A stretch of DNA of 56,739 nucleotides from Dehalococcoidia bacterium (GTDB lineage Bacteria > Chloroflexota > Dehalococcoidia > GIF9 > AB-539-J10): contig JBEKTM010000004.1 in the NCBI GenBank assembly GCA_049516035.1, forward strand, positions 1 through 56,739, given 5' to 3'. Positions 3,543-37,409 of the stretch are shown here, piece after piece; position 1 is the first letter of the stretch; the number at the start of each line of letters is the position of its first letter. Position numbers and translations under genes: made by a program. The notes under the pieces are model-generated. The model was not told the DNA's origin, did no database searches, and worked only from the letters and a program-made list of their open reading frames with translations.

Positions 3543-4430
3543 ATGACTCAAGCAACTCAACAAACTAAAGTGGGTGTCCTAGCTGGTATACCTGCCTATA
3601 ATGAAGCAAGATATGTCGGAAGCATAGTCCTCCAGGCAAGACAATATGTAGACGAGGTCATTGTCGTTGACGATGGCAGCACAGATAACACTGCCGAGGT
3701 TTCTGAGCTTGCCGGCGCCACTGTAATCCGACACAGCGAAAACAAAGGTTATGGAGCAGCCATTCAGAGCATACTGGCAGAAGCCAGAAAGAGAAACCCG
3801 GATGTCCTCGTCCTCCTCGATGCTGATGCCCAACACAATCCCAATGAGATTCCCATTCTCATCAAACCCGTTTTGGAGGGTTTTGACCTTGTCATCGGCT
3901 CCCGAGAAGCCCAGAAAGAGAAGACGCCCCGTTTCCGGCGCATCGGGAAAGAAGTCATTTTACGCTCAACACGTCTCGCTTCAAAAACCAATATTTCTGA
4001 TTCTGAATGCGGCTTCAGAGCCTTTTCCAAGAAGGCTATATCAGAACTAGAGCTAAAGGAAAGCGGGATGGCCATATCGGCAGAAACGGTAACCCGCGCC
4101 GCCGCTAAAAACCTCAAGATGACCGAGGTGCCCATATCAAACATATACACCATGGATGGCTCGACCCTCAACCCGATAAGACATGGCGTAGACGTTCTCA
4201 GCCGGATAATAGTCATGATTTCACAGAGGAGACCACTGTTCTTCTTCGGACTGGCAGGTGGCATTTTGCTAGCGGTTGGTCTCATCATCGGCTTCAGGGT
4301 GCTTCATATAGCTACCGCAACAGGCGAGGTAGCTATGGGCAGCACTATACTGACCACTTTGTTCATTATCGCTGGTATGTTGAGCATCTTCACTGGCATA
4401 ATTCTGAACGCCTTAGGCAGTCGAAAATAA
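3543..4430 (+). CDS. GT2 glycosyltransferase, polyprenol/dolichol-phosphate hexosyltransferase-like (DPM1/AglJ/GtrB-like) with C-terminal TM helices
   Basis: IPAYNE...VVDDGSTDNT...LDADAQH motifs of GT-A family 2, with a hydrophobic C-terminal tail (LFFFGLAGGILLAVGLIIGF, ILTTLFIIAGMLSIFTGIIL). ATG 3543 preferred over TTG 3534. Confidence 0.75.
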   Translation: MTQATQQTKVGVLAGIPAYNEARYVGSIVLQARQYVDEVIVVDDGSTDNTAEVSELAGATVIRHSENKGYGAAIQSILAEARKRNPDVLVLLDADAQHNPNEIPILIKPVLEGFDLVIGSREAQKEKTPRFRRIGKEVILRSTRLASKTNISDSECGFRAFSKKAISELELKESGMAISAETVTRAAAKNLKMTEVPISNIYTMDGSTLNPIRHGVDVLSRIIVMISQRRPLFFFGLAGGILLAVGLIIGFRVLHIATATGEVAMGSTILTTLFIIAGMLSIFTGIILNALGSRK

Positions 4431-4529
4431 TCAAGGCATAAATCAGCCCGCCAGAACCAGTAACATCATTTAGGACACTGTTAGCTCTAGTGTCAAAGCG
4501 AAAATAAACGTGGCATTGCATTCCTCTTT

Positions 4530-4600
4530 GTCATCGCACCTCTTCCCTTTCAGTCATTGCGAGCCCTTCGCAAGAAGGGCGTGGCAATCTCCGGGATTGC
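4530..4600 (+). repeat. Copy of the dispersed palindromic repeat family (GTCATCGC..ACCTCTTC..GTCATTGCGAG-N-GCAATCTC-N-GGGATTGC)
   Basis: Read directly: gtcatcgcacctcttccctttcagtcattgcgagcccttcgcaagaagggcgtggcaatctccgggattgc. Same architecture as 30806-30888. GCAATC/GATTGC form an inverted repeat. Confidence 0.8.
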
Positions 4601-4728
4601 GGGGTTTGTTCTGAGCACAAGCAAGGTAACTCGCCGAAGCAACTTAGTTTTGTAATGGGATGCTAGCTTGATGGTTATCTGGGATTTCCATCAACTAGCA
4701 GCTGACAGTAACGAACAAGAACGATGGT

Positions 4729-4757
4729 TTGTCAAACTGCCCGCCCTGCGCTATATT
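4729..4757 (+). promoter_or_regulatory. Possible sigma-70 promoter upstream of the first gmd operon
   Basis: TTGTCA (4729-4734), 17-nt spacer, TATATT (4752-4757). This would leave a ~220-nt leader before GTG 4977. Confidence 0.3.
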
Positions 4758-4976
4758 GCATAACCAAAAGAGGCAATGTTAAGATTGATGTTAGACGTAA
4801 TGGCGCAATATGAATATACGAATAAGGTTCAGTTAGCTCGCCTACAACTATGTCAATCAATGCCTCAAAGCGGGATTTGCGAATTAGAAGGAAAAACTGC
4901 TCTTGATTAAATCATCGATGAGAGTAGCTCTACGACTGGGTTAATGTTGCGTAAATAGGTATCTGAGGAGTACAAA

Positions 4977-6026
4977 GTGAAACGTAAAGCCTTGATTAGT
5001 GGAATAACGGGCCAAGATGGCTCATACTTAGCGGAGTTCTTATTAGCTAGAGGATACGAAGTCTACGGAATCCTTAGAAGGGCCAGCACTTTCAATACCG
5101 TTCGTCTTGACCATTTGCTCTTCGATGGTCAACGTGAGAAGGATATCGGGATTTTTCTACGTTATGGAGACATGATAGACTCATCAAATCTGAATAGGTT
5201 GCTGGAGCAAATACAGCCTGATGAGATCTACAACTTAGCTGCCCAGAGTCATGTTCAAGTCTCCTTCGAGGTCCCGGAATATACCGCTGAAGTGGATGGT
5301 GTCGGTGTTTTGAGAATACTGGATGGGATTAAGGAAATCGGGTTAAGAACGAAGTTTTACCAAGCATCAACGTCAGAACTGTTTGGCCAAGCTAAGGCTC
5401 CTCAAAATGAGACTACGTTATTCTACCCAAGAAGTCCCTATGCTGTCGCGAAGCTATATGCACATTGGATAGTCAGGAATTACAGAGAGGCATACAACCT
5501 GTTTGCTTGCAACGGGATACTATTCAATCATGAATCTCCTAGGCGAGGCGAGAGTTTCGTGACTAGGAAGGTCAGTAGAGGCATCGCTCACATCCTCACC
5601 AAAAAGCAGGATCATATATACATGGGCAATTTGGAAGCAATAAGAGACTGGGGTTACGCTCCAGAATACGTCGAATTCATATGGAAGATGCTTCAGACTC
5701 CACAGCCCGAGGACCTTGTCATGGGCACGGGGGAATCCCACACTGTGAAAGAACTTATTGAGGAAGCTTTTTCTTATGTGGGGCTTGATTGGCAAAAATA
5801 TGTCAAGATAGACCCCAAATACTTCAGGCTGACGGAGGTTGATGAGTTAATTGCTGACTCGGCTAAAGCTAGAAAAGTCCTGGGATGGAACCCGAAGATT
5901 AGGTTCAAGGAACTTGTCAAGATTATGGTGGATGCAGATATGCGCGCTGTGGGCTTACAACCTATCGGTGAAGGAGACAGAATACTAAAGCAGAAATTCC
6001 CCGACAGATGGTGGGGGCGTGATTGA
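4977..6026 (+). CDS. gmd: GDP-mannose 4,6-dehydratase
   Basis: [17 protein letters not shown] Rossmann motif, [28 protein letters not shown] (YxxxK), and NHESPRRG, all characteristic of GMD. GAGGAG Shine-Dalgarno 7 nt before GTG. Confidence 0.9.
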
Positions 6027-6027
6027 T

Positions 6028-6957
6028 ATGCCGTTCAGCAAGGTATTTGTTCCTGGCGGTAATGGATTCCTGGGCAAAAGGGTTGTCAAAAAGCTGGAAG
6101 AAAAAGGCATAGGTTGTGTTTCCCTTTCTTTGAGAAATGGCTATGACTTTCGTGATGTTAGACAAACGCGGGAGTTGTTTGAGCAAGAAAGATTCGATGC
6201 CTTCATCAACTGCGCAGCCTTCGTAGGAGGAATCCAATTCGGGTACGAGCGACCTGGCGAGATCTTCTACAACAATATCTTGATGTCAACAAATTTGATG
6301 GAGAGCGCGAGATTAACTGGTGTAAAGAGATTCATCAATCCTATTTCCAACTGTTCTTATCCCGGTCACCTGACAACGGATTTCAAAGAAGAGGAATGGT
6401 GGGATGGACAACTTGATGAATCCGTACTGGTCTACGGATTTGTGAGGAAAGCCAGTTGGGTGCAGAGTTGGGCGTATTATAAACAATATGGTTTTGAGAC
6501 TGTCAATCTTATCCTGCCAAACATGTATGGCCCTGGTGACCATTTCGAGGAGAAGCGCTCTCATGCTCTTGGCGCACTGATAATGAAGTTCGTGGAGGCG
6601 AAAAGAAAAAATCTTCCCCATGTTACTGTTTGGGGTAGCGGTAAACCGGTGAGGGAGTGGCTATTTGTGGATGATGGGGCTGAAATTCTAGTAAAGGCTC
6701 TGGAAACGGGATTGATTTTAGACCCGATTAATGTGGGAGTGGGCAAAGGTATTTCTATTCTTGAACTTGCAGAGTTAATAAGAGATATAGTGGGATACAA
6801 GGGAAAAATAGTCCTAGACATGTCAAAGCCTGACGGAGCCCCACATAAGACGATGGATAACAGCAAGTTAAAAGCACTATTCAATTGGGTGCCCCCCACG
6901 AGCTTAAGAAACGGGATTGAGCAAACTGTGGAATGGTATATGAATAATATCAAGTAA
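6028..6957 (+). CDS. GDP-L-fucose synthase-like SDR epimerase/reductase (divergent paralogue)
   Basis: VPGGNGFLG Rossmann motif, LPNMYGPGDHF, WGSGKPVREWLFVDD, similar to Fcl/WcaG. The active-site segment reads YGFVRK (Lys displaced by one from canonical YxxxK). ATG 6028 lies just after the gmd stop. Confidence 0.65.
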   Translation: MPFSKVFVPGGNGFLGKRVVKKLEEKGIGCVSLSLRNGYDFRDVRQTRELFEQERFDAFINCAAFVGGIQFGYERPGEIFYNNILMSTNLMESARLTGVKRFINPISNCSYPGHLTTDFKEEEWWDGQLDESVLVYGFVRKASWVQSWAYYKQYGFETVNLILPNMYGPGDHFEEKRSHALGALIMKFVEAKRKNLPHVTVWGSGKPVREWLFVDDGAEILVKALETGLILDPINVGVGKGISILELAELIRDIVGYKGKIVLDMSKPDGAPHKTMDNSKLKALFNWVPPTSLRNGIEQTVEWYMNNIK

Positions 6958-6966
6958 GGCACAATA

Positions 6967-7371
6967 GTGAAAACTGAGAAAATAGTTGATGGCAATACGA
7001 CCCTGGCAATTGTAATCAGAGGCGCTGACTGGGAAGAAGGGCTAAACTTTGTATCCTCGAATGAAGATTATCAGCAGATGGGGATTTGGGGATACAACAA
7101 GGGTCAGAAATTGCCGCCTCATATCCACCTGGTGGCACCCCGAGAAGTTCTACATACTCAAGAGGTGATTTTTGTTAAGGAAGGCCGTGTCAGAGCCGAT
7201 GTCTACTCCCAGGAAAAGAAGTTTCTGAGAACAATCGAACTTGGCAGGGGCGACACTATGATTCTTCTTCATGGTGGACACGGCTATCAAATACTAGAGG
7301 ATAATACGAGGGTATTAGAGGTCAAGAACGGCCCCTATGTTGGAGCGGAAAAAGACCGGGAAAAAATCTAG
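6967..7371 (+). CDS. Small cupin-fold protein (possible sugar keto-isomerase/epimerase accessory)
   Basis: 134 aa with a PPHIHL...E..FV.EG...H.GHGY pattern compatible with a cupin. It sits between a nucleotide-sugar reductase and an aminotransferase. Confidence 0.45.
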   Translation: MKTEKIVDGNTTLAIVIRGADWEEGLNFVSSNEDYQQMGIWGYNKGQKLPPHIHLVAPREVLHTQEVIFVKEGRVRADVYSQEKKFLRTIELGRGDTMILLHGGHGYQILEDNTRVLEVKNGPYVGAEKDREKI

Positions 7372-7386
7372 GCCTAAGGGCGGGAC

Positions 7387-7527
7387 AAACTACATCTGGG
7401 CTGTGGGAAAAGATATATTCCCGGATTTATCGGCAAGGACTACGATGATTTCTCTCAGGCATACATTCCTCATATGGACAATGAAAAGGTGTTACTGATA
7501 AGCTTTAATGTAGAGGCGCGGAGAAGC
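7387..7527 (+). pseudogene. Internally deleted remnant of a class I SAM methyltransferase (paralogue of 13268-13801)
   Basis: Translates as KLHLGCGKRYIPGF-IG-KDYDDFSQAYIPHMDNEKVLLISFNVEARR. This matches the N terminus (KLHIGCGNRYIPGF) and C terminus (KDYDDYSQAYIPHMDKERGILISLNVEATK) of the 177-aa methyltransferase at 13268-13801, with the middle missing. Confidence 0.75.
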
Positions 7528-7528
7528 C

Positions 7529-8632
7529 ATGAAAAGGATTAACCAGATTGAGCCCTGGATAGGTGAGGAGGAAAAAAGGGCAGTAGCGGAATATTTGGAT
7601 GCCGGTGGCTGGCTGACCGAATTCAAGAAAACGAGAGAATTTGAGCAAATGATAGCCGACTATGTCGGCAGCAAATATGCATCAGTGGTGAATAATGGCA
7701 CGATCACTTTGCTCATTGCACTTATGGCCCTCGGGATCAAGAACAAAGACGAGGTTATTGTTCCTGACTACACGATGATAGCTTCAGCTAACGCTGTTGT
7801 CTTAGCCGGTGCCAAGCCTGTCCTTGTAGATATTGATCCCTCAAATCTGTGCCTAGACTTGGAGTTGGCTGAGGAGGCAATTAATCGCAGAACCAAGGCG
7901 ATGATGTTTGTGAGCATCAATGGGCGTTGCCCTGATATGCATAAGGTCGCAGCCCTCGCGCGCAAACACAATTTGTTTCTGATCGAAGATACCGCCCAGT
8001 CCCTGGGTTCCCGGTTCCGAGGAAAACACCTGGGAACCTTTGGCATGGTCGGCAGTTTCTCCTTCAGTTTCCCTAAAATCATAACTACTGGCCAAGGCGG
8101 CGCCTTGGTTACCGACGATGAGGAACTTTACCGCCGAATGGCTATGATAAAGGATTTCGGACGACCCAAAGCCGGAGTGGATTACCATGAGATTATGGGA
8201 TTCAACTCCAAATTTACCGACCTTCAGGCAGTCATCGGGGTTGAGCAAATGAAAAAGCTCGATTGGAGAGTGAAAAGAAAGAAGGAAATATACAAGCTTT
8301 ACCATGACTTGCTGCAGGATGTAAGAGAGGTGGAATTCATAGCTACGGATTTGCAGGATTGCGCACCCTGGTTCATTGACATCCTTGTTAATGGAGATGG
8401 AGTTAGAGATAATCTGGCCAAGTTCTTAGAAAGCAAAGAAATAGGCACTCGGCCTTTCTATCCGGCAATCCATACACAGCCTCCGTATTCTCATGTTAGG
8501 GGTGATTTCAAGGTCTCGGCGTCAATATCTCAAAGAGGTTTATGGCTGCCGTCTTCATCTTTCCTCACAAATGACGATGTCGAAAGAGTATGTAGTGAGA
8601 TAAAAGCTTTCTTCTTGAGCGCACGAGGCTGA
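7529..8632 (+). CDS. DegT/DnrJ/EryC1/StrS-family PLP sugar aminotransferase (perosamine-synthase-like)
   Basis: Family pattern including SFSFPKIITTGQGG (PLP lysine). It sits downstream of gmd, consistent with amination of a GDP-4-keto-6-deoxyhexose. Confidence 0.8.
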   Translation: MKRINQIEPWIGEEEKRAVAEYLDAGGWLTEFKKTREFEQMIADYVGSKYASVVNNGTITLLIALMALGIKNKDEVIVPDYTMIASANAVVLAGAKPVLVDIDPSNLCLDLELAEEAINRRTKAMMFVSINGRCPDMHKVAALARKHNLFLIEDTAQSLGSRFRGKHLGTFGMVGSFSFSFPKIITTGQGGALVTDDEELYRRMAMIKDFGRPKAGVDYHEIMGFNSKFTDLQAVIGVEQMKKLDWRVKRKKEIYKLYHDLLQDVREVEFIATDLQDCAPWFIDILVNGDGVRDNLAKFLESKEIGTRPFYPAIHTQPPYSHVRGDFKVSASISQRGLWLPSSSFLTNDDVERVCSEIKAFFLSARG

Positions 8633-8683
8633 ACTTATTAGTGTGAGACCTACAGTAACTCTCTTGTAAGGGTTGAAACGAAC

Positions 8684-9859
8684 TTGAAACTACTTATAGT
8701 TTGCAGCACTATTGACCTGAAATACGGTATGGGAGCCACGCCATTTTGGTGGCAGCTATTCAAGGCTCTGCACGAAATGGGCAATGAGCTAATTGTTATT
8801 CCCTATCTTGGCTATCCTGTAAACTCGCTGTGGTGGCGAACTTATCCTAATCCCTGTGCCCGCGAGAGTATTTTATTCAATTCTTTCCTTGACCGGACAA
8901 GGGTGAGGGCGGTTGGTAGCCAGGGACATTTTTCTAATCTGAGTTCAGCTTTGGTCAAGAAATATATTCGGCCGAAATGGGAAAGGCATCTACTTAAAGT
9001 GCTGGACCAGGAAGGAGATGTGGATGCTGTCCTATTTTTCAACGCACCTTTAAATCATATGACAGGCATACCCACAAAGATTAAAACAAGAGCCGAGTTG
9101 CCCATTATTTATTATGATGGCGACCTGCCCACAAGTTTGCCTGACTATGCTGACACCGAGAGCTTCAAGTTTAGCCAATATCCCGGCGCCGACCTTGCTG
9201 AATACGATATCTTCCTCAGCAGTTCCAAGGGCGCTATTCCTATACTAAAGGAGATGGGAGCCAGAAATGTTGACGTTCTTTATTATGGCGTAGACCCAGA
9301 GCTATACTCTCCGATTCAAGTTGAGCAGGATATAGACATTTTCTATTATGGTCATCGGGGAAAAACAAAAGAGAGACGCATGGATTTTATGATTACCCAG
9401 CCATCTGAAGCCCTTCCCGATGTACATTTTCTGGTAGGTGGCAGGGAGCATGAAGTAGGACTGGGCCGAGCCAAGACCTGTGGCACACTCACTATCAGCG
9501 CCTGGAGAGGTTATTGCTGCCGGAGCAAGATAAATCTCAACATAACCAAGGAAATCGACGCTCAGATGTATGGCACATCCAGTGCCCGTCCTTTCGAACT
9601 AGCCTCGTTAGGCTGCTGTGTGGTTTCTGACCCGTATAATGGCCTTGAAGAGTGGTTTGAAGTCGGGAAAGAGATGTTTATGGTACATAATGCCGAGGAA
9701 GCCATAGAAACATACAAAATGCTCTTATCATCAGCCGAATTACGGCGAAGGACTGGGGAGGCAGCTCGAAGCAAAGTCCTTAAGGAGCATACTGCTCAAC
9801 ACAGGGCTAAACAGCTCATCAACCTCTTACAAGGATTGGAAGGGCATCAACATAGATGA
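8684..9859 (+). CDS. CgeB-family / GT1-like glycosyltransferase
   Basis: C-terminal part (SARPFELASLGCCVVSD...EEWFE.GKEM......EEAIE....LL) resembles the CgeB-type glycosyltransferase domain. TTG start. Confidence 0.55.
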   Translation: MKLLIVCSTIDLKYGMGATPFWWQLFKALHEMGNELIVIPYLGYPVNSLWWRTYPNPCARESILFNSFLDRTRVRAVGSQGHFSNLSSALVKKYIRPKWERHLLKVLDQEGDVDAVLFFNAPLNHMTGIPTKIKTRAELPIIYYDGDLPTSLPDYADTESFKFSQYPGADLAEYDIFLSSSKGAIPILKEMGARNVDVLYYGVDPELYSPIQVEQDIDIFYYGHRGKTKERRMDFMITQPSEALPDVHFLVGGREHEVGLGRAKTCGTLTISAWRGYCCRSKINLNITKEIDAQMYGTSSARPFELASLGCCVVSDPYNGLEEWFEVGKEMFMVHNAEEAIETYKMLLSSAELRRRTGEAARSKVLKEHTAQHRAKQLINLLQGLEGHQHR

Positions 9860-10974
9860 GGGTTGTGATAGTAAGAGCTGCCTTGGAAACAGTCAGCCCC
9901 AGAGGCCCCAAGGCTGCGCAGGTTTTGTCTTCTCATGGTCACAATGTCATTCTGTTAGGTTGGGACAGAGAATGCAAATACTCCAAGGTATCGCGCCAAG
10001 AACACTACGAAGCGCACAGGTTTAGATTCAGAGCACCTTTTGGCCCTAAGGTTCTCGCTTTCCTGCCTATCTGGTGGATGTTTGAATTACTGTGGCTGAT
10101 ACGGCACAAGTGGGACGTGGTCCAGGCTATGGATTTCGATACCATTATGCCCGCAGTGGTTGCTGCCAAAATAAAGAGGAAGAAGGTTATTTACGAAATA
10201 GCTGATATTTATTACAAATTGGTGAAACTTCCCGGGTGGTTTGCTTCAATATGTGTCTTTGTTGATAAGCTCTTTATCCGTTGTGCTGACGGCGTAGTGC
10301 TAGCCAGCGAAGGGGTAGTGAAGGAGCTACACGGAATCCCAAACAAGAATGTAGTTATAATTCTCAACTCCCCCCCTGACCTTTGTGGCGAACCGCAAGT
10401 TGCTGCGAAGGACAAGGATATATTTACCATATTCTATGCCGGCGCGCTTTTCAGGAGCCGTAAGTCAAATCTGGATAAGGTTTTCCAAGCCATCAAAAGC
10501 ATGGATAAAGTCAGGATGGTTGTAGCCGGGTATGGCGACGAAGTCGACCAAATCACCGCCTGGGCCAGTGAAGCAAAGGATAAAGTGCAGTTTTTGGGCA
10601 AGATCAGCTACAGTCAAGTCCTGGCTAAAACTGCTGAAGCTAACCTTCTGGTTGCGCTGTACGATCCGAGTGTCTACGTACACAGATGGGCTTACCCTAC
10701 GAAATTGTTTGAAGCTATGATGTGTGGTAAACCCATCCTCGTAAGCAAAGGCAGTGCCATGGCAGAGCTGGTGGATAAGGAGAACTGCGGTCTGGCGATT
10801 GACTGCCAGAGTGTTGAGGAGATAAAACAAGCCATAGCGAAGCTCAAACAGAATCCCAAATTGTGCGAGCTGCTAGGAGCTAATGGGAGGAAAGTGTACG
10901 AACGGGAATACAGTTGGCAGGTTATGGAGAAACGCCTGCTCTCACTATATTCGGCGATAGTCAGTAAATGCTAG
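9856..10974 (+). CDS. GT4 (GT-B) glycosyltransferase
   Basis: C-terminal E-x7-E-like region PTKLFEAMMCGKPILVSKGSAMAELVDKENCGLAI. ATGA overlap with the upstream gene. Confidence 0.8.
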   Translation: MRVVIVRAALETVSPRGPKAAQVLSSHGHNVILLGWDRECKYSKVSRQEHYEAHRFRFRAPFGPKVLAFLPIWWMFELLWLIRHKWDVVQAMDFDTIMPAVVAAKIKRKKVIYEIADIYYKLVKLPGWFASICVFVDKLFIRCADGVVLASEGVVKELHGIPNKNVVIILNSPPDLCGEPQVAAKDKDIFTIFYAGALFRSRKSNLDKVFQAIKSMDKVRMVVAGYGDEVDQITAWASEAKDKVQFLGKISYSQVLAKTAEANLLVALYDPSVYVHRWAYPTKLFEAMMCGKPILVSKGSAMAELVDKENCGLAIDCQSVEEIKQAIAKLKQNPKLCELLGANGRKVYEREYSWQVMEKRLLSLYSAIVSKC

Positions 10975-10978
10975 GCAG

Positions 10979-13096: not shown

Positions 13097-13267
13097 GCTA
13101 GAGGAGATAGCATGTTGCAACTGACGTGGGTGGCAATCCAGGTTCCCGCAAGCCACCTTGTGAGACAACGGGACTAATATAGCGATCTTCCGCCTTTCTG
13201 CCTAGTAAACAGCAACGCATGGCTAAATGGATTTCTGCACAGGACTTCATTCCAGGCATGGTCTTAC

Positions 13268-13801: not shown

Positions 13802-13803
13802 AG

Positions 13804-15820
<2,017 letters not shown>

Positions 15821-15821
<1 letters not shown>

Positions 15822-17038: not shown

Positions 17039-17047
17039 ACAAATCTC

Positions 17048-17833: not shown

Positions 17834-17853
17834 TTTTATAGTACACCCTCCTT

Positions 17854-26387: not shown

Positions 26388-26506
26388 ATTACAAATCCCT
26401 CCCAGTTTCTTAATTCTAACCTTTTGACTAATATCTCCACAATTCTCTCGGCTGTTTTGTCGTCACCGAACACATCTTGTTGTCCTGTCCTGGGGTTGGA
26501 AATGCC

Positions 26507-28395: not shown

Positions 28396-28407
28396 TAACC
28401 CTCCTTC

Positions 28408-29406: not shown

Positions 29407-29412
29407 CTACCA

Positions 29413-30717
29413 TCACAACCTTACGATGTTCTTATTTCTGAGCTTCCTGGTAACGCCTCGGGTATCGAATACAAAGCTGGCCTTTCGGGCTATGTATTTA
29501 TAGTCGTAGCAAGTGTGGTCGGTTGCAATCACCACGCAGTCGGCTGAGACCAGTTGCTCGTCTGTAAGGTTCACCGACCTCAAATTATTTTCGGAGATTC
29601 GAACACTCGCCACATATGGGTCGTTGTAGGACACGTTTGCCCCCTTTTCACACAAGAGCTCAATTAGCTTCAAGGATGGTGACTCTCTCACATCCTCCAC
29701 ATCTCTCTTGTACGCGACCCCCAGCACCAATACCTTGGCCCCGTGCAAACTCTTGCCTTCAGAATTCATGGCATCCAACATGCGGGAGACGACGTAATAA
29801 GGCATATGCTCATTGATGTCCGCCGCGAGCTCGATGAATCTGGTGTGGAAATCAAACTCCCTGGCTTTATTCGCCAGGTAATAAGGGTCGAGCGGGATGC
29901 AGTGCCCCCCGATCCCTGGCCCAGGGTAGAACGGCATGTACCCAAAAGGCTTGGTTGCAGCTGCATCTATTACTTCCCAAACACTTATCTTCATCTTCTC
30001 ACAGAGCAAGGTAAGTTCGTTAACCAGGGCTATGTTCACATTACGAAATACATTTTCGAATACCTTAGTCATCTCGGCAACTTCAGGACTTGAGACCGGG
30101 ACAACTCTATCCACGATTCGACTGTACAAGAGTGTAGCGAGCTTTGTAGATTTGGTGTCTATGCCGCCAATCACCTTCGGCGTGTTCCGGACATTGTAAT
30201 TCTTGCTCCCGGGGTCGACCCTTTCCGGAGAGAAGGCAAGATAGAAATCACGTCCTGCTTTGAGGCCAGAGCGTTCCAAAATTGGTAGCATCACCTCTCG
30301 GGTAGTGCCTGGATAGGTTGTGCTCTCGAGAATCACTAATTGCCCTTTCTGAAGGTACTTGGAGACCACTTCGGACTCACTGATGACATAAGAGAGCTCC
30401 GGGTCTTTGGTTTTGGTAAGCGGAGTGGGCACACAAATGCAGATGGCGTCAACCTCCTTGAGTCGGCTCTGGTCAGTAGTGGCCTTTAACAACCCTTCTC
30501 TGACCGTTTCTCTAAGGACTTTGCTATCTACATCAGCTATGTAAGACTGTCCCTTATTAACCCAATCCACTCGCCTTTGTTGAATGTCGACCCCGAGCAC
30601 CTTTAAACCAGCTTTGGCAAAGGCCAAAGCTAGGGGCAAGCCGACGTAGCCCAAGCCGATAATACACACAACAGTTTTATTGGTGATTTTTGACTGGCTC
30701 AATCGTGTTTTATTCAC
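29413..30717 (-). CDS. Nucleotide-sugar 6-dehydrogenase (UDP-GlcNAc/UDP-ManNAc dehydrogenase; WbpA/WecC-like)
   Basis: VCIIGLGYVGLPLALAFAKAG, GPGIGGHCIPLDP (catalytic Cys), 434 aa. Confidence 0.8.
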   Translation of the reverse strand: MNKTRLSQSKITNKTVVCIIGLGYVGLPLALAFAKAGLKVLGVDIQQRRVDWVNKGQSYIADVDSKVLRETVREGLLKATTDQSRLKEVDAICICVPTPLTKTKDPELSYVISESEVVSKYLQKGQLVILESTTYPGTTREVMLPILERSGLKAGRDFYLAFSPERVDPGSKNYNVRNTPKVIGGIDTKSTKLATLLYSRIVDRVVPVSSPEVAEMTKVFENVFRNVNIALVNELTLLCEKMKISVWEVIDAAATKPFGYMPFYPGPGIGGHCIPLDPYYLANKAREFDFHTRFIELAADINEHMPYYVVSRMLDAMNSEGKSLHGAKVLVLGVAYKRDVEDVRESPSLKLIELLCEKGANVSYNDPYVASVRISENNLRSVNLTDEQLVSADCVVIATDHTCYDYKYIARKASFVFDTRGVTRKLRNKNIVRL

Positions 30718-30805
30718 TTTGCTTCACTCCATTATTCATGACTGCCAACATACTCCGTTCTTACATCTTAAGCAGTTTATCAGAAGAACGTTCGGCACTC
30801 AAGCC

Positions 30806-30888
30806 GTCATCGCGAACGGACGCACCTCTTCTGTCATTGCGAGGCACGACAGTGCAAGAGCAATCTCACAGAGCAGTGTGGGATTGCC
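30806..30888 (+). repeat. Copy of the dispersed palindromic repeat family, upstream of the wbpA-like operon
   Basis: gtcatcgcgaacggacgcacctcttctgtcattgcgaggcacgacagtgcaagagcaatctcacagagcagtgtgggattgc. Same architecture as 4530-4600. Confidence 0.8.
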
Positions 30889-30959
30889 AGGCGGAGCCAT
30901 AGCTTTTCATCTTGCTCAGGGCAGGTCTGAGCGGGAGGAAAATTCTTCGCCCCGACAAG

Positions 30960-31514
30960 TCAGGGCTCAGAATGATAATCGGCCTTTACGGTGTCTCCTG
31001 ATTTTATAATAGTTCTGTTTGTATATATTAGAGCTTCAATATCATCTTTCTTGATGTAAATCCCCACGGAGTATTCGCCGTTGGCTATTTCCCATGTCGG
31101 AATAAGAGCTGAAAATCCCGAGTTGTCCAAGTTCAAGCCTAACTCTTTAAACTGCTCGGTAACATTCTCTCTTACCACTGTTTCTGTGGTGAATACATAT
31201 GTCCTGTCCGCGGATTTCAAGGATTTCAAGACTATATATATTTTGCTGTTGACAGAGTCATGGCCCTCAATGAATGCCCAGCCGTATATCTCCAGAATCT
31301 GTGCGGCGGATTCAAAGTGGTCAACCGAGTATTGAATGTTGTCGGTTGCGGCGGGGAGTGAAGTTTCATACAAGTCAGATGCACCAGCAAACTGTTCAAG
31401 TCTGTCGAAGAGAGGCTCCACCACAAAAATGGTCAACAGCACAAATCCCACAATAATGGATGTGTGCGTGATGACCTGTTTCCTGTGAGTCCTGAGCCAG
31501 CTTCCCATTGCCAT
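30960..31514 (-). CDS. Membrane-anchored hypothetical protein
   Basis: 184-aa ORF with one N-terminal TM helix (IIVGFVLLTIFVV). Same strand and tight spacing with the neighbouring genes. No recognisable motif. Confidence 0.5.
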   Translation of the reverse strand: MAMGSWLRTHRKQVITHTSIIVGFVLLTIFVVEPLFDRLEQFAGASDLYETSLPAATDNIQYSVDHFESAAQILEIYGWAFIEGHDSVNSKIYIVLKSLKSADRTYVFTTETVVRENVTEQFKELGLNLDNSGFSALIPTWEIANGEYSVGIYIKKDDIEALIYTNRTIIKSGDTVKADYHSEP

Positions 31515-31526
31515 GGCTAATTACTG

Positions 31527-32990
31527 CTACTGATTATCCTCCAGCAGTGAATAATTGGCGCCGAAATAATTGTTGAATATCAGACGGAACGTGTTTACTG
31601 GCGATATGTTGTCAGACAAAGTATCGTAATCCATTCCCGGGAGATACATGGCGTTAAGTATCTTTTCCCATTCAGTGTCCCCGATGACTATGCCGGGATG
31701 GTCCGGCCGCTGGCCGTGGTCTGACTGTAAAATGATAATTGGCGGGATTTTCGATTCTTTTATTAATACATCGACCACCTTCTCTATCTCCGCCGAGATG
31801 AAGATATACTGCCCACGATAGAACTGTTTATTTTCATAGTTGTACCAATTTGCAGGGGCAACATACTCGCCATCGGGACCGAATACATAAGGTGTGTGGG
31901 GACATATGAAATGGGCGAAAATGAATTTCGGGCCCTCTAGCTCAGGCAGCGCCTCAAGTTTCTCCAGCATGTACAAGGTCTGGCACCGATAGCTATCTTC
32001 ATACTGACTTCCAGTAACGTAGCCATAGAAGGGCTGCAGCATGGTGGTGTTCCACAATATATACACAAACTCAGTCACCATACTGCTGCTATTATATCCA
32101 TGGTAGTCTAAGTAAAGGTCGACGTTATCATTGGCATACTTTTCCCATGTATACTCTGCAAAGTTGTTGCCGAAAGCAATGTATTGATAGCCCTGTGCCT
32201 TCAGGAAGTCTGCCGCCTTGTTGTCGGCTATTTTTTGGTAGGTAGGCTCACTCCACGGCTCATCATTGAGATACTCCATGTTCAGCACCTCGGCAAGTAC
32301 CTGTGGAGAGTCCGATGACAGTGATTTACTCTCATAAGCTATGAAAAAACCTTTATTCTTCAGGCTGTTGATGAAATCGCTGTTATCGTAATCATACCAT
32401 TCCTTCATGGTATCAGGATGGGCATACTCATCCAAGATGATGAAATAGATATCGGGCAGGGTGCTGAGTTCGGCCGGGCTGGCAACAGTCTGCTCCGACG
32501 ACTTCTCCGGTGCGACGTCACCCAGCCTGGCTAGTTTGACTTGATGAACACCGATGTTAAACAGGTTGATGGCAATGAACACGACCGCCGTTATGTTGAG
32601 AAACTTGGTGGCGATGCGAAAATCCCTTTTTGCCCGGCTGATGAAATAGACGCAGTAGCCCCAGATGAACAGCATGCTGGAGAGCAGGTAGGCGTGTTTG
32701 GGCGCAAACATGGCCCACTCCAGTACATCATAAAGACGTCCGTAGGAGAAAAAGAATAACAGGAATATAGCGGTAGCAATTCCCGCCTTAGTCGGGCTGC
32801 GGAGTATGAGGCTCAAGACTACCCACAACACCAGAGCAGCAGCCACCGAGATTACCAGCGGCAGCCAGACCTCGCTCATCGATGCTTCGCTTATGTTGTA
32901 GGCATAGAGAAACAGGATGGGAAAAGCAGCAAATAGCGGCGGGTAGAAAACCACCGGCCCCTTGAAAATATCTCTCCATTTTTCTTTCAT
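31527..32990 (-). CDS. Membrane-bound sulfatase-like / alkaline-phosphatase-superfamily transferase (LTA-synthase-like topology)
   Basis: N-terminal multi-TM block followed by a soluble domain with IYFIILDEYAHPD and ILQSDHGQRP, resembling sulfatase/phosphotransferase metal-site motifs. Confidence 0.55.
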   Translation of the reverse strand: MKEKWRDIFKGPVVFYPPLFAAFPILFLYAYNISEASMSEVWLPLVISVAAALVLWVVLSLILRSPTKAGIATAIFLLFFFSYGRLYDVLEWAMFAPKHAYLLSSMLFIWGYCVYFISRAKRDFRIATKFLNITAVVFIAINLFNIGVHQVKLARLGDVAPEKSSEQTVASPAELSTLPDIYFIILDEYAHPDTMKEWYDYDNSDFINSLKNKGFFIAYESKSLSSDSPQVLAEVLNMEYLNDEPWSEPTYQKIADNKAADFLKAQGYQYIAFGNNFAEYTWEKYANDNVDLYLDYHGYNSSSMVTEFVYILWNTTMLQPFYGYVTGSQYEDSYRCQTLYMLEKLEALPELEGPKFIFAHFICPHTPYVFGPDGEYVAPANWYNYENKQFYRGQYIFISAEIEKVVDVLIKESKIPPIIILQSDHGQRPDHPGIVIGDTEWEKILNAMYLPGMDYDTLSDNISPVNTFRLIFNNYFGANYSLLEDNQ

Positions 32991-34378
32991 CTCTGTACCC
33001 GGCGCATCAAGTACAGTGTCCTCTGTGATTCCACCATAGCAGAGGAATCTTCCACGGTGAAATAGCGACTAAACTCCTGTTCAAACGCCTGGCGGGTATA
33101 ATTGGGGAAAATGTCCTCTCTGGTAGCCAGAAGCCTCTGGACCTGCGAATCGGTCTTGGGGACAAACTCAATGATGAGCCAGTGGCTGATGTCGCTGAGA
33201 AACCCGGCAATCCTAGACAAGGGGACATTGTTGGAGATGGCCAGGTGATGGACCAGAGCCAGGGCCAGCACAGCATCGGCAGGACCGCGTTCTTTAAGAG
33301 ACATCCGCTCCTTGTTCTCCCAGCCGATAGCCGGGCTGGGATTGGTTAAATCAATCACCAAGGGTAGAATGTTGGTATCACCCCTGGCAACGCAGTCTAG
33401 ATAGTTCTTTTCCACGGCAGCGGGGTCAACGTCAAAGGATACGGTGGGAATTCCTCGGTCGCTGGCAAGACGGCTGAATATACCTACATTGGCGCCCAGG
33501 TCCCAGACAGTGGCCGGTCTCACCCTCTCCAGGAAGCCGGCCACAATTGTCTTCTTGTGTTCGAAGGCCTGCGGTGAGTAATTAGTGTCCTGATAGTAAT
33601 CGGCCCATTCAGTGCCCCGGGGTTGCCATTTCAGCTTCTTAACGATAGATTCCAAGCTGTTAAGAATGCCCAGGGAGGCGTAGCGACTCACCCGGTATTG
33701 TCTGATGTTTATCGGTTTATCGGCAAAATGTTCCTGACTTCGGGCATGAAGGTGGATATGGGAAAGTAAGGAAAATCTTAGGTGCGTGCGCCACGGCAGC
33801 AGGCAGCTCGCTAAATCCAGAGGCAACCCATCTATGTAAACGTGGAGCAACTGACTCAGCCGTATATCTTTATAGCTCATTAAGGCTAGTGGTGCCAGGA
33901 AGTGCTGGCAGAACTGGCGGTAAGCGACCCAGGGTTGTCCCTCACAATATCTCCCAAATGAAAGCGTATCGATGAATACCGGCTTGCCGTTCTTGAACTG
34001 GATGTTGTAAGCGCTGCTATCTCTCAGTGACATGCCGAAGTCAAGGGCTCTTCTCTGTATTTTGAGTGTGGTCAGGGCGGCATCCTTTAGCTGGCTGAAG
34101 CACCACTCGTAGGGATATGAGATAAATGGTATCATCTCCGGCTTGATTATTTTGTAAGCAAGTTCAGGTAGTGGCGGCTCAGTGCTGACTTCCTCATGGG
34201 GAATCAAAAGGTTATCGTCAACGAGCGCCTGGTAAAGACCGGAACTCGTCAGATGGTCATAGTCATCCTTGTAGACCAGGTTTACCTGACGATATATGAG
34301 GCCATCTTGCTGGAAAAGGAAACCGCTGGGGTCGCGGAAGGAGGCCGGGAGCTGTGCACTATCCGCTCTCCTCATCAC
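32987..34378 (-). CDS. Two-domain protein: unknown N-terminal domain plus C-terminal class I SAM methyltransferase
   Basis: N-terminal FRDPSGFLFQQDGLIYRQV. C-terminal VWDLGANVGIFSRLA (motif I), DAVLALALVHHL. Confidence 0.65.
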   Translation of the reverse strand: MMRRADSAQLPASFRDPSGFLFQQDGLIYRQVNLVYKDDYDHLTSSGLYQALVDDNLLIPHEEVSTEPPLPELAYKIIKPEMIPFISYPYEWCFSQLKDAALTTLKIQRRALDFGMSLRDSSAYNIQFKNGKPVFIDTLSFGRYCEGQPWVAYRQFCQHFLAPLALMSYKDIRLSQLLHVYIDGLPLDLASCLLPWRTHLRFSLLSHIHLHARSQEHFADKPINIRQYRVSRYASLGILNSLESIVKKLKWQPRGTEWADYYQDTNYSPQAFEHKKTIVAGFLERVRPATVWDLGANVGIFSRLASDRGIPTVSFDVDPAAVEKNYLDCVARGDTNILPLVIDLTNPSPAIGWENKERMSLKERGPADAVLALALVHHLAISNNVPLSRIAGFLSDISHWLIIEFVPKTDSQVQRLLATREDIFPNYTRQAFEQEFSRYFTVEDSSAMVESQRTLYLMRRVQR

Positions 34379-34634
34379 CTTTTCGTTTCTTAAATAGATT
34401 GCGGAAAAAATTCTTTACCTTCGTCCTGTAAACACCAATCATCGCCAGTACCCCGACAAACGACCCAATGAGGATCTGGATGATAATGCTGCCTGTGCCG
34501 GCGTCGATATAGTAGGCATGAGCTGCCTGGCCGGATGTACCAGCATCGATAGAGGCGTAAACCGTTTGCGAGAAAATCAAGAAAAGCGAAATAACGACGA
34601 CAAGTGTAATTCCTAGCTGTTTTATCCGGGCCAT
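34359..34634 (-). CDS. Small secreted/membrane hypothetical protein
   Basis: 91 aa with a signal-like N terminus (ITLVVVISLFLIFSQTVYA), IDAGT motif twice, a second TM helix and a basic tail. It overlaps the downstream gene start. Confidence 0.45.
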   Translation of the reverse strand: MARIKQLGITLVVVISLFLIFSQTVYASIDAGTSGQAAHAYYIDAGTGSIIIQILIGSFVGVLAMIGVYRTKVKNFFRNLFKKRKGDEESG

Positions 34635-34754
34635 GTCGCTTGCCCTTTCTACATTGTGTTAATTCCTAAACATATTAGTTAACCGATACGCATTTGTCAA
34701 CTTGTGCAGGAACGTACTTTTAAGTGTGCCCGATGCTAGTGCTTGGAAGGCGGT

Positions 34755-34811
34755 GAGATTGCCACGCAGGGTTTACCCCTTCCCTTTCACTTCATTCAGG
34801 GTCAGAATGAC
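34755..34811 (-). repeat. Long-loop copy of the dispersed palindromic repeat family (reverse orientation)
   Basis: Reverse complement reads GTCATTCTGACCCTGAATGAAGTGAAAGGGAAGGGGTAAACCCTGCGTGGCAATCTC. It shares the termini GTCATT... and ...CGTGGCAATCTC with copy 4553-4592. Confidence 0.65.
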
Positions 34812-34929
34812 AAAAAAGATGGGCACAATGCCAAGAAGGCTCAATAACTTGTGCCGATGCTTTAGTAATTCCTCAGCTAGATGAGACCTGTAAATCCCGC
34901 CCCACTGGTAATTATGGCTGTGTTTTTAC

Positions 34930-37409
34930 TCAGGACTGATTTGAGCCAAGATATTTAAAAACTTTCACAGTTGTTGCGTTCACAGTGGCCCCGGGCGGAT
35001 ATGGATATACGAGCTCATAACTGTTCAATTTCTCAAGAGGCACGATGCTACTAAAAGGATCATACCCCACTATTCCATAATTTCCCGACGTCTGGCTTGC
35101 AACATAAGCTTGAGCATCCTCATAGTTGGAAAAAAATACAGGTTGTCCAACAATATTCTTATACGTATAGAACTGCCCTTGCTGTTGGTACACTGATTCC
35201 CCACTCCATGGGATAACTACTGTGGAATTTATCGAAGGAGTCACTGCTTCGCCATTGAAGTTATAAAGCCTAACTGCAGTTGACATATATAAAGCCTAAC
35301 TGCAGTTGACATATAATAAGCGGGATAATAAAGCAAGTAGAGCGCTTGCGGGGCTCCACCGGCTACCTGTGGCGGTATCCCATAATATTCGTAAAAATCA
35401 TCCTCGCTCTCGTTAGCCCAATCCACCATAGCGTGAAACTTTCCAATTACCATGTCATAATCAATCATCACATATTTCGTACCTAAGTTGTACTGCTCCA
35501 CAACTTCCTGGGTGGAGCTTTCATTCTGGGCGGTAAAGAACTTGCCAGCCTGGACAGCTCCAGACTGACCGGGATTGGCATTGGGTATGCGATGGGCAAT
35601 TTGCATTATAAAGTAGCCGTAGTCCCACCAGGACATCACACCGTAGGCAGATTCAGGGTATTGGAACGGAGTCTTGTATAGCTTATAATAGAAATTGGGG
35701 TCATTAAGATCACCAAAAGGGTCGGGGCTGTTATCCCTTAACCACTGAAGAGAGCTATACCATCCCTCATTCATAGTAACAAGTGCTTGCGCGGCGTAAT
35801 ACCGTGTGTAGCCGATGTAAAGCCCACCGATTGATGTGGGCTCATCTCTCCACAGTCCAATACTGGGGAAAAAGACCAGGAAAAAGATGATTATTCCGAC
35901 AACGATGACATTTACCCAGGCACCTCTGGGCTGCATGAATGTTCTTGGTTTCGGTTTCGCCCTGGCTTTCTTTCCCTTCTTCTTGAATTTTCTAACTGCT
36001 ACCACTACTTCTTTAGACTTAGCCAGCAGTTTGCGTAAGCCAGCAATGTCCAGCATTTTCCAGGAGAAATACCCTGTGAGCAAGGCAGCGTTCACAGTAT
36101 AGTAATAACTGAAGCGGCGTTGCCCCAGGACCGCTATTAACATTATTATGCTCCATACCAGGAATAAGATTTTGTCGGCACTTTTTTCCTTAACAGCGAC
36201 ATAGATAAGCATAGCAATGGAAATAAATGAGATGAAGAAGGTGGTGTTAAAGTTAGCCCAGGCCATACTGAAGGTGAAAACGCCATTACCAAAAGGGAAA
36301 AGAAGAGGAGTCGCCTCCATGACAGTGAGCATAGCGCCGGACTGCTTGAAGATGCTAAATAGGCTGAGCATGGACTGAAACAAGAGGGGATTGATGGCAT
36401 GCAAAGCAGCAAGCCCGATTCCCGCCAGTCCCAGCAAGGTCAAGGGATAGTAAACAGGCTTCCAAGCCCTGCCTGCCATGAACCGTGAGATAATACTTAA
36501 GACTACGGGTAACACTATGGCAACCGGCAGAGACACCAGAGAAATGGTATCCAGGCTGCCCTTGACCAATATGGGAAGAAGCATGAGGAAGGCAACAAGG
36601 AAGAGAGGTGTGCCCACAATACACAGATAGTCGCTCGGTTTATGACTCAAGTGGTCCACGATGAACTGAATCACCAGGTAAACAAATATAATGAATACGA
36701 ACAGCAGCCCACCTGCCCAGGTAAGTAGGTAAATACCCAGGAAGATGCCAGCGATCAGGGTATAGACGAGAGGCTTGGTGATAGTTGACCAGTCTTTACT
36801 GAGAATGTGGCTGAAGGAAATCTCCCTTGCTCGAGCTCGCTTAATGGCCATTATCAGAAAGAGTATGCACACGGTGCTAAACAAAACCTCGGCTACATGG
36901 TGGTCGGTAAAGCCAAGCAAGGAACGATTCAGGAATTCGCCAGGCAAGATGGCAACCAAGGCAGCTGAAATTACGCCTACCCAGCGGTTAAACAGCTCCT
37001 TGCCAATAAAGTACACGGGGATGAGCGTCAGAGTGCCCAGGATAGGGGGTATATAAGCGGCCACTACTTCTATGGTATGCAGAGTTGGTGCCCCCCCCTT
37101 AACAAGCAGAATAATAGCAGAGATAAGCCAGGCGAAGAACGGGCGAGAAAGTGCTGCACTACCGCCGGGGAAGAGCATGTATGGGTCAAAAGTATTGTAG
37201 TGAGGAAAGTGTTTGAGCAGAACTTCTATGTTGCGTATGTAATAATAGGCATCAGTCTCTCGAAACCAAACCGCGCCATTGACAAAAATCTGGTCATGAG
37301 GCAAGGCTATCCGTATGTACAATGAGATGCCACAGATAGCGGCCAGAATTATGCCCCATATAGCTATTGAGGGGAGCCTTCGTTTTCGCTCTGGACTTTG
37401 CTCGCTCAC
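34930..37409 (-). pseudogene. STT3/AglB/PglB-family oligosaccharyltransferase, reading frame split by a 26-bp tandem duplication (ORFs 35241-37409 and 34930-35286)
   Basis: About 13 TM helices, then a soluble domain with the diagnostic WWDYG (YGVMSWWDYGYF). N-terminal loop acidic motif RETDAYYY and TDHH (DxH). Both ORFs contain MSTAVRLY at the duplication. Removing one 26-bp copy gives a continuous protein of about 817 aa. Confidence 0.8.
35262..35313. repeat. Perfect 26-bp tandem duplication (2 copies of tataaagcctaactgcagttgacata)
   Basis: Read directly: 35262-35287 equals 35288-35313. The length is not a multiple of 3, so it frameshifts the oligosaccharyltransferase gene. Confidence 0.95.

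Follow-up and report, generated by a model that had tools for sequence, protein, structure and literature searches.

A candidate archaeal-type (AglB) N-oligosaccharyltransferase locus at the border of a mosaic glycan island in an uncultured Dehalococcoidia bacterium

Could a member of the Dehalococcoidia attach oligosaccharides to asparagine residues of its exported proteins? To our knowledge, the textbook view confines bacterial N-linked glycosylation to PglB systems, found in Campylobacterota and some Desulfobacterota. The question is raised by a 56,739-nt stretch of DNA, hereafter the window, from a Dehalococcoidia bacterium (GIF9; AB-539-J10; assembly GCA_049516035.1, contig JBEKTM010000004.1, positions 1-56,739, forward strand); all coordinates below are positions in the window unless another locus is named. 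A preliminary description of the window had outlined a glycan-assembly island at 3543-37409 ending in an oligosaccharyltransferase (OST) of STT3/AglB type, and had read it as a candidate N-glycosylation system. That reading is supported by our profile, fold, motif and linkage tests, and we consider it probable that this is an acquired, archaeal-type (AglB) N-OST locus. The novelty lies in the host, an unusual and ecologically important lineage, whereas the locus itself belongs to the known AglB type.

Profile, sequence and structure searches agreed on the identity of the OST. Pfam returned STT3 (PF02516; 2.5e-26, 93.6 bits, gathering threshold 24.5) and AglB_core-like (PF22627; 6.3e-21, 75.2 bits, gathering threshold 27), and the sole NCBIfam match was TIGR04154, which scored 619.7 bits where the cutoff is 450. 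Among PDB sequences, Archaeoglobus fulgidus AglB-L (AfAglB-L) was the best match (1.2e-71) and human STT3A the next (4e-7), while a profile built from 25 diverse family members reached 8e-121 with AfAglB-L and 1.5e-30 with STT3B; no PglB chain was found at E<=0.01 with the protein, nor at E<=1 with the family profile. The AlphaFold2 model (pLDDT 86.3, pTM 0.88) has the domain plan of the OST fold, a multi-pass transmembrane domain followed by a C-terminal globular domain. Foldseek ranked AfAglB first (7E9S; E 5.7e-36, query TM-score 0.70, 25-28% identity in the Foldseek alignments), ahead of eukaryotic STT3 (1e-22 to 1e-15), PglB (~1e-13) and DPY19 (1e-8), with PMT, ArnT and AftA in the tail at 1e-4 to 1e-5 and TM-scores of ~0.3. 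The STT3/AglB-type identity proposed earlier is therefore borne out in Pfam, NCBIfam, PDB and Foldseek alike, and placement in another family of the GT-C fold (ArnT, PMT or YfhO) was not obtained.

The motifs that had first drawn attention to the protein were all located: RETDAYYY at residues 50-57, TDHH at 168-171 and WWDYG at 594-598, together with TVME at 362-365 and a DK-type motif (D650/K657/M661). The functional residues of AfAglB are D47, D161/H163, E360 of the TIXE motif, R426, WWDYG and the DK motif (PMC8342417), and they align in the OST to D53, D169/H171, E365 of TVME, R432, W594-G598 and D650/K657/M661. The resemblance to AfAglB-L (3WAJ, 5GMY, 7E9S) and to other TIGR04154 OSTs extends to the 13-helix transmembrane domain with its C-terminal globular domain, to the equal spacing of both DXD motifs, TIXE, WWDYG and the DK-type motif, and to R432, the counterpart of the phosphate-site R426. 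In a set of 25 family representatives sharing 31-70% identity, D53 and D169 are present in 25/25 and E365 in 24/25, and D53, D169-H-H171, T362VME365, R432, WWDYG and D650/K657/M661 are invariant or near-invariant. Invariance over such a range of identity is the pattern expected for active enzymes under purifying selection, and the OST is predicted to be a single-subunit AglB-type enzyme with a complete metal site and complete sequon-binding elements.

The protein does not fall in the PglB clade, since it carries the DK-type instead of the MI motif and no Bac_transf protein is encoded in the window. It is like Campylobacter PglB in being a single-subunit bacterial OST encoded beside genes for assembling and flipping a lipid-linked oligosaccharide (LLO), and the two have the GT-C fold in common. 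They differ in that no sequence similarity is detectable, in that the window lacks a PglC-type phosphoglycosyltransferase (PGT) and bacillosamine genes, and in the euryarchaeal-like origin of the OST.

An archaeal-type enzyme in a bacterial genome calls for care about the DNA itself. A full RpoD encoded in the window marks the replicon as bacterial (Table 1), in line with the earlier assignment to a sigma-70 bacterium. A scan with one genome per GTDB species gave 595 confirmed stretches of the OST family, and the best 80 of these, at 42-79% identity, all come from metagenome-assembled genomes (MAGs) of Dehalococcoidia, Dehalococcoidales or Chloroflexota; a complete 1.76-Mb Chloroflexota chromosome is one of the 80. 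On the core side of the OST lie genes for a rhomboid protease, an alpha/beta hydrolase, a LeuA-family synthase and LeuB; as many as 20 of the Dehalococcoidia loci share this synteny, with amino acid identities of 60-95%. A chimeric assembly or mis-binning, in which archaeal DNA was misjoined to a bacterial contig, could account for the best matches of the OST, the GlmU-like protein and the GlmM fragment being archaeal-type models, but we find it barely credible: the order OST-rhomboid-hydrolase-leuA-leuB is found again on a contig of 692 kb and in ~20 Dehalococcoidia assemblies that are independent of one another, a family member sits on the complete chromosome just mentioned, and GC content is even across the OST junctions (0.45-0.50). 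We rejected this explanation on synteny and composition.

The family is also far from rare. A library of 50%-identity representatives held 849 clusters at E<1e-30, the JGI and NCBI pipelines already label Dehalococcoidia members as oligosaccharyl transferases, and the TIGR04154 name appears in hundreds of Dehalococcoidia MAG annotations. Searches of full-text literature for an AglB, STT3 or OST from Dehalococcoidia or Chloroflexota brought up no relevant paper, so that the description of such a locus as largely uncharacterised stands for the literature but not for databases. The OST family is class-wide in Dehalococcoidia, already auto-annotated and apparently unstudied.

What links the OST to glycan synthesis is its setting. 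Two gene blocks converge in the ORF listing, one on the plus strand (428..12103) and a long one on the minus strand (13268..37409) in which the OST has the highest coordinates. Conservation across related genomes is limited to the core side of the OST and the other side varies by genome. The OST gene thus sits where conserved core genes meet a hypervariable island for glycan biosynthesis. We surveyed the 134 proteins encoded within 10 kb 3′ of the OST in 18 related loci (L-numbered handles denote related OST loci or assemblies), and the commonest families were sugar epimerase/dehydratases, RmlD, nucleotidyltransferases, methyltransferases, GT4 glycosyltransferases, UDP-sugar dehydrogenases and Polysacc_synt flippases. 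The commonest immediate neighbor was a UDP-sugar 6-dehydrogenase, directly 3′ of the OST and within 700 bp of it in at least nine loci across much of the clade, and four distant loci (L031, L032, L066 and L074) have an AglJ-like GT2 at 80-1150 bp from their OST. Euryarchaeal (Methanobacteriati) aglB loci show a like organization (PMC11284389). This recurrent linkage, matching that of the euryarchaeal loci, speaks for an OST that works with what its neighboring genes produce.

The island itself is a mosaic. Remnants of an epimerase and of a glycosyltransferase lie where the convergent arms meet, and comparison with a closely related 692-kb JGI contig (L001), which is 99.26% identical over 22.5 kb, revealed ~5% divergence at 26-28 kb against <0.3% elsewhere. 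Of 133 substitutions, 100 fall in 26000..28000, in the genes for a DegT aminotransferase and a hexapeptide acetyltransferase (a WbpE/WbpD-like pair), which points to a recombination patch inside a sugar module. Remnants and a diverged patch are both typical of glycan loci that recombine and are hypervariable.

The island would supply most of the parts of a lipid-linked pathway. The polyprenyl-phosphate GT2 at 3534..4430, described earlier as DPM1/AglJ-like, gave matches of that kind: its best NCBIfam model is AglJ (TIGR04182, 1.1e-44, under the equivalog cutoff), its best PDB match is the Pyrococcus furiosus dolichyl-phosphate-mannose synthase (5MLZ, 4.5e-17), with ArnC also matched, and two C-terminal transmembrane helices are predicted (235-253 and 272-290). 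It is a candidate initiator of a monophosphate-linked LLO, or maker of a polyprenyl-phosphate-sugar donor. A Wzx-like flippase had been proposed, and the 12 helices and full-length Polysacc_synt match are consistent with this, with a score just under threshold; the protein had no PDB and no NCBIfam match. Of the "at least six" further glycosyltransferases claimed, five are intact (starting at 8684, 9856, 10979, 15821 and 18036) and the sixth is the remnant at 12860..13096. All three methyltransferases (13268, 17048 and 32987) were recovered, the last as a weak match.

The nucleotide-sugar modules were found as GDP-, CDP- and UDP-sugar sets, with the correction that the glm genes lie just outside the start given for the island (25..3491). 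The families present indicate, by homology, supply of UDP-N-acetylglucosamine (UDP-GlcNAc), a 2,3-diacetamido-uronic acid, GDP-fucose, a GDP-4-amino sugar and a CDP-deoxyhexose. The genes at 26507..30717 look like a UDP-2,3-diacetamido-uronic-acid-type module (WbpA/B/D/E-like), and the split transketolase-like pair within the CDP-deoxyhexose module suggests a two-carbon branched or extended sugar. The best models for the GlmM fragment and the GlmU-like protein being archaeal in type hints that UDP-GlcNAc supply may be archaeal-like too.

In gene logic the locus is like the Agl pathways of Haloferax volcanii and methanogens, where a dolichyl-phosphate glycan initiated by AglJ or AglK is handled by the AglR flippase and AglB: here a polyprenyl-phosphate GT2, soluble glycosyltransferases, methyltransferases, a MOP-type flippase candidate and an AglB are found, with sugar-nucleotide genes beside the OST. 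Diacetamido-uronic acids occur in Methanococcus N-glycans, and the corresponding module is present in the island. The locus is unlike these pathways in having no AglD/AglS-type GT-C protein and in the low score of its AglJ-like GT2, and unlike AfAglB-L in its bacterial host, where the lipid carrier is presumably polyprenol and not dolichol.

We propose the following sequence of events. Nucleotide sugars would be made by cytoplasmic enzymes of the island, and the oligosaccharide would be built on polyprenyl phosphate at the cytoplasmic face. With less confidence, we suggest that the AglJ/DPM1-like GT2 starts the chain and so yields a donor of the euryarchaeal, monophosphate-linked type (PMC8342417), which would explain why no PGT is found in the window; alternatively, a PGT encoded elsewhere would start it. 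The GT4, GT2 and GT10 enzymes would extend the chain, which would then be methylated, and the Wzx-like protein would flip it. The OST would finally move the glycan en bloc to the Asn of N-X-S/T in exported proteins, using, to judge by homology and motif conservation, the metal site D53 / D169-H171 / E365 and the Ser/Thr pocket formed by WWDYG and the DK motif. The likeliest acceptors would be S-layer or other surface proteins, as most orders of the class have lost peptidoglycan and have an envelope of membrane and S-layer (PMC10284905).

Several observations weigh against N-glycosylation as the function of this locus. The AglJ-like GT2 scores 153 bits, under the 325-bit equivalog cutoff of TIGR04182, and could make a polyprenyl-phosphate sugar for a different pathway. 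The flippase assignment is borderline, with Polysacc_synt at 27.9 bits against a gathering threshold of 28.2 (E=2e-6, over the full profile length). A mosaic island with remnants may feed more than one glycoconjugate, and that all 34 kb serve one N-glycan is something we infer. The genome beyond the 57-kb window could encode a Wzy, WaaL or PGT that uses the island's sugar genes. A search of the ~10 kb around the OST in 82 loci turned up no acceptor, no archaeosortase and no PGF-CTERM protein. In the one archaellum structure available from Chloroflexota the glycans are O-linked and not N-linked (PMC12488501), and N-glycoproteins in Dehalococcoidia are a prediction from gene content. Finally, the OST reading frame is interrupted by a frameshift in this window.

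Some of these points could mean that the island mainly makes a non-protein surface glycoconjugate (an O-antigen-like polymer, a capsule or a secondary polymer of the cell wall) or O-linked glycans for the S-layer, with polymerase, ligase and initiator encoded elsewhere and the OST a mere neighbor at a recombination hot spot. The content is classic for O-antigen and capsule loci (RfbFGH, WbpABDE-like enzymes, GMD/Fcl, GT10), and the island is like Wzx/Wzy loci also in its further glycosyltransferases, in its Wzx-like protein and in being a hypervariable mosaic at a fixed place in the chromosome; it holds gene remnants and a recombination patch. The parts that define a Wzx/Wzy-dependent locus are nevertheless missing from the window: no called ORF matched a Wzy, Wzz/PCP, WaaL, WbaP/PglC or WecA family in Pfam or NCBIfam, as the preliminary description had maintained, and a hydropathy scan of the island revealed no polytopic membrane protein besides the OST and the Wzx-like protein that could serve as Wzy or WaaL. 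This absence holds for 57 kb only. A Wzx-like flippase and a polyprenyl-phosphate GT2 are present while polymerase and ligase are not, an N-OST stands in the position of the terminal transferase, and the association of OST and glycan genes recurs across many Dehalococcoidia lineages with differing gene sets. We therefore consider a non-protein or O-linked product unlikely, and N-glycosylation the better account of the island.

The missing acceptor bears on another alternative, that the OST homolog does not N-glycosylate and instead hydrolyzes LLO to free glycans, or uses a non-Asn or non-protein acceptor. OSTs, AfAglB among them, do have LLO-hydrolyzing activity (PMC8342417), and the survey of 82 loci offered no acceptor to set against it. 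On the other hand, WWDYG, the DK motif (the Ser/Thr pocket) and the sequon-binding TIXE serve peptide recognition and are conserved family-wide, and we regard this alternative as very improbable. The PGF-CTERM search was a tail pattern run over all ORFs in the 82 loci, with spurious matches only. TIGR04154 defines an "archaeosortase A system-associated" subfamily of Euryarchaeota, and the OST is like its members in scoring above the trusted cutoff and unlike them in the lack of an archaeosortase or PGF-CTERM protein nearby and in the split of its gene in the window; no exosortase family was among the top OST-neighbor families in 18 loci. In a single case (L081, 13186..17823 of that locus), a 1545-aa protein with a signal-peptide-like N-terminus is encoded directly downstream of the OST; it has 25 N-X-S/T sequons (16 per 1000 aa) and is a candidate surface glycoprotein acceptor.

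The interruption of the OST gene deserves closer attention. The gene consists here of a 722-aa ORF (35241..37409) and a 118-aa ORF (34930..35286) that overlap, and it is split because a perfect 26-bp tandem duplication (2 x TATATGTCAACTGCAGTTAGGCTTTA), flanked by TATA microhomology, shifts the frame after residue 707. Deleting one 26-bp copy restores an 817-aa protein. From end to end it is 100% identical to P0001, a database OST protein whose gene is intact and lies, in the same gene context, on L001 and in a second, independent assembly (L002). The protein of ~817 aa given in the preliminary description is thus real once the frame is repaired, while the duplication that splits it in the window had gone unnoticed. 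The duplication is present in neither L001 nor L002, which carry the intact 817-aa gene and apart from the duplication do not differ from the window in this gene, and the OST gene has zero substitutions against L001. The lesion must accordingly have arisen very recently, or else it is an artifact of assembly. The window has one other indel against L001, an 8-bp perfect tandem duplication at 43860..43875 (CGGCTTTT x2), intergenic and upstream of a PEMT-like gene, which is also not in L002. A search of metagenome contigs gave 0 hits to the duplication junction, and also 0 to the intact-junction control, a sequence that L001 and L002 do contain, so that collection lacks this population and is uninformative on the matter.

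The truncated product would comprise residues 1-707 plus 15 out-of-frame residues; it keeps the whole transmembrane domain, WWDYG and the DK motif, and loses only the terminal beta-rich domain of the AlphaFold2 model (about residues 708-817). The 118-aa ORF begins at an ATG within the second repeat copy, and its product would be made without a signal for export. Natural short AglBs (AfAglB-S1 and -S2; PDB 3VGP, 3VU0) have C-terminal globular domains of just ~160 residues, and residual activity of the 722-aa product is conceivable for that reason. A second OST copy may also exist in this genome, as some related MAGs hold two loci. Such pairs were seen in three MAGs (L018/L019, L008/L021 and L069/L080), and they may be explained by paralogy of the OST, known also from A. 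fulgidus, or by bins that mix strains.

One could go further and regard the duplication as truly inactivating and the locus as a cluster turning into pseudogenes. The premature stop in the OST fits this, as do the gene remnants at 12.1-13.3 kb and an apparent 1-nt frameshift at the 5′ end of the glmU-like gene, near homopolymers at ~395-410, which makes it the second disrupted gene in the window. In that gene the N-terminal nucleotide-binding motif (VRAVFLCGGRGKRMFPVTEDK, within 340..430) starts at a GTG at ~344 in another frame. With a second frameshift present, indel errors from assembly or sequencing become more likely, and so does local decay. We hold decay to be doubtful, since the OST has no substitutions against intact alleles in 99.3%-identical strains, which would make any inactivation very recent, and since both indels against L001 are simple tandem duplications, easily reverted or possibly artifacts; the retained domain and motifs, the natural short AglBs and the paired OST loci of related MAGs also count against it. 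The OST here is either a broken or variant allele, in which case this strain or subpopulation would have the system switched off or impaired, or an assembly error, and in either case the gene deserves a flag as disrupted in the annotation of this assembly.

Returning to N-glycosylation by an AglB-type OST, a wider version can be put forward tentatively: a class-wide, complete archaeal-style system, with an AglB-type OST and an AglJ-like monophosphate polyprenol donor, that decorates the S-layer and was acquired from Methanotecta-like Euryarchaeota. Chloroflexota archaella were acquired from Methanotecta archaea (PMC12488501), and the closest solved relative of the OST is from Archaeoglobus, a member of that proposed donor group. 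As a bolder addition, the 26-bp duplication could be imagined as a reversible on/off switch for surface glycosylation. If the proposal is right, N-glycosylation would be a major overlooked trait of a very abundant subsurface and marine bacterial lineage, and an AglB-type enzyme with conserved motifs in at least 80 species-level Dehalococcoidia/Chloroflexota genomes, in every case next to glycan genes that vary, would extend it to a globally abundant class. It would suit the archaeon-like envelope of the class (an S-layer, with no peptidoglycan in most orders) and would be a further sign that archaeal surface machinery has passed into Chloroflexota on a large scale. Dehalococcoidia OSTs are also potential single-subunit enzymes for glyco-engineering.

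Table 1. Features of the window in order of position (aa, amino acids; GT, glycosyltransferase; NDP, nucleoside diphosphate; SAM, S-adenosylmethionine; TM, transmembrane; TRF, Tandem Repeats Finder)
Feature	Coordinates	Strand	Evidence or remark
GlmM C-terminus	25..348	+	archaeal-type TIGR03990 best NCBIfam model
GlmU-like gene, apparently 5′-frameshifted	428..1663	+	archaeal-type TIGR03992 best, 249 bits, cutoff 292
GlmS	1716..3491	+	UDP-GlcNAc supply, flanks island
Polyprenyl-phosphate GT2, AglJ/DPM1/ArnC class	3534..4430	+	Pfam Glycos_transf_2 1.5e-27
GMD	4977..6026	+	TIGR01472 gmd 491 bits, cutoff 415
GDP-fucose-synthase-like	6019..6957	+	Fcl-like 246 bits, under cutoff
134-aa protein without family assignment	6967..7371	+	PDB and relaxed Pfam (E<=1) nothing useful
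DegT aminotransferase of GDP-sugar module	7529..8632	+	DegT 4.4e-106
CgeB-like GT, Glyco_trans_1_2	8684..9859	+	Pfam
GT4 glycosyltransferase	9856..10974	+	Pfam
GT4 glycosyltransferase	10979..12103	+	Pfam, NCBIfam
Epimerase fragment, 120 aa	12363..12725		junction of convergent arms (12104..13267)
GT C-terminal fragment, 78 aa	12860..13096		remnant at arm junction (12104..13267)
SAM methyltransferase, 177 aa	13268..13801	-	Pfam Methyltransf_11
Second GDP-fucose-synthase-like	13804..14751	-	Pfam; Fcl-like 291 bits, under cutoff
Second GMD	14748..15821	-	Pfam
GT10 alpha-1,3-fucosyltransferase-like	15821..17038	-	Glyco_transf_10 4.6e-17; PDB Helicobacter pylori FucT 1.1e-16
SAM methyltransferase, 286 aa	17048..17908	-	Pfam Methyltransf_31/12/25/11
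Soluble GT2	18036..19073	-	Glycos_transf_2 1.2e-32; NCBIfam TuaG/EpsE-like, under cutoffs
Wzx/MOP-type flippase candidate, 501 aa	19087..20592	-	12 predicted TM helices; Polysacc_synt
Split transketolase-like pair	21570..22394 and 20638..21573	-	separate genes for halves with transketolase N and C domains
Epimerase/reductase, CDP-deoxyhexose module	22387..23319	-	part of 20638..26387
RfbH	23304..24659	-	NF011936 740 bits, cutoff 423
CDP-Glc 4,6-dehydratase-like (RfbG-like)	24634..25629	-	TIGR02622 224 bits, under cutoff
RfbF	25611..26387	-	TIGR02623 326 bits, cutoff 300
DegT aminotransferase (WbpA/B/D/E-like set)	26507..27646	-	Pfam, NCBIfam
Hexapeptide acetyltransferase (WbpA/B/D/E-like set)	27643..28395	-	Pfam, NCBIfam
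GFO/IDH/MocA 3-dehydrogenase (WbpA/B/D/E-like set)	28408..29406	-	Pfam, NCBIfam
NDP-sugar 6-dehydrogenase (WbpA/B/D/E-like set)	29413..30717	-	Pfam, NCBIfam
184-aa single-TM protein	30960..31514	-	TM prediction
487-aa membrane-anchored protein, weak sulfatase-fold (alkaline-phosphatase superfamily) domain	31527..32990	-	N-terminal TM helices
463-aa methyltransferase-like protein, weak	32987..34378	-	Pfam weak
91-aa two-TM protein, signal-peptide-like N-terminus, basic tail	34359..34634	-	TM prediction
AglB/STT3-type oligosaccharyltransferase gene	34930..37409	-	817 aa repaired; Pfam, PDB, NCBIfam, AlphaFold2/Foldseek, motifs
Perfect 26-bp tandem duplication	35264..35315	-	TRF score 108, 100% match
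Rhomboid protease, conserved core flank	37522..38154	+	Pfam
Alpha/beta hydrolase, conserved core flank	38166..38921	+	Pfam
LeuA-family synthase, conserved core flank	38970..40583	-	Pfam
LeuB, conserved core flank	40595..41683	-	Pfam
RpoD-type primary sigma factor	54469..55941	-	Pfam regions 1.2, 2, 3, 4; TIGR02393 362 bits, cutoff 354

Four poorly characterized genes (30960..34634) sit between the OST and the dehydrogenase. The 91-aa gene overlaps the start of the 463-aa gene, and the pair recurs in L010 (17653..19300) and L018 (8142..9735) at 66-87% identity. Of the four proteins, the 487-aa and 463-aa ones were searched against PDB, with no match, and a relaxed Pfam search (E<=1) of the sulfatase-like, 463-aa, Wzx-like and 134-aa proteins and of four small ORFs, the 184-aa and 91-aa ones included, gave nothing useful. 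The architecture of the 487-aa protein resembles that of LtaS/EptA-type transferases, and the protein might decorate the glycan with a phospho-substituent once it is outside the membrane.

The rhomboid gene is divergent to the OST and lies ~110 bp from its start, an arrangement found in ~18 loci of the closer clade and absent from distant ones. A link between a rhomboid protease and N-glycosylation has reportedly been described in Haloferax. We dropped a functional rhomboid-OST link, because the adjacency is limited to the closer clade and follows the general core synteny.

Scans of the window for tRNAs and Rfam families gave no match. Beyond the core flank, 42000..48000 has a low GC content (0.40-0.42) and a strongly negative GC skew, with a negative AT skew at 44-46 kb, and encodes a DUF3795 protein, the PEMT-like gene, a 777-aa protein, a calcineurin-like phosphoesterase and MgtC. 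It may be a compositional island, or its composition may be an effect of coding for Lys/Glu-rich coiled coils. The 777-aa protein (43967..46300) has a weak AAA_27 match at its N-terminus, and together with the phosphoesterase (Metallophos, 46297..47376) it may form a putative SbcCD-like pair, judging from these weak domain matches.

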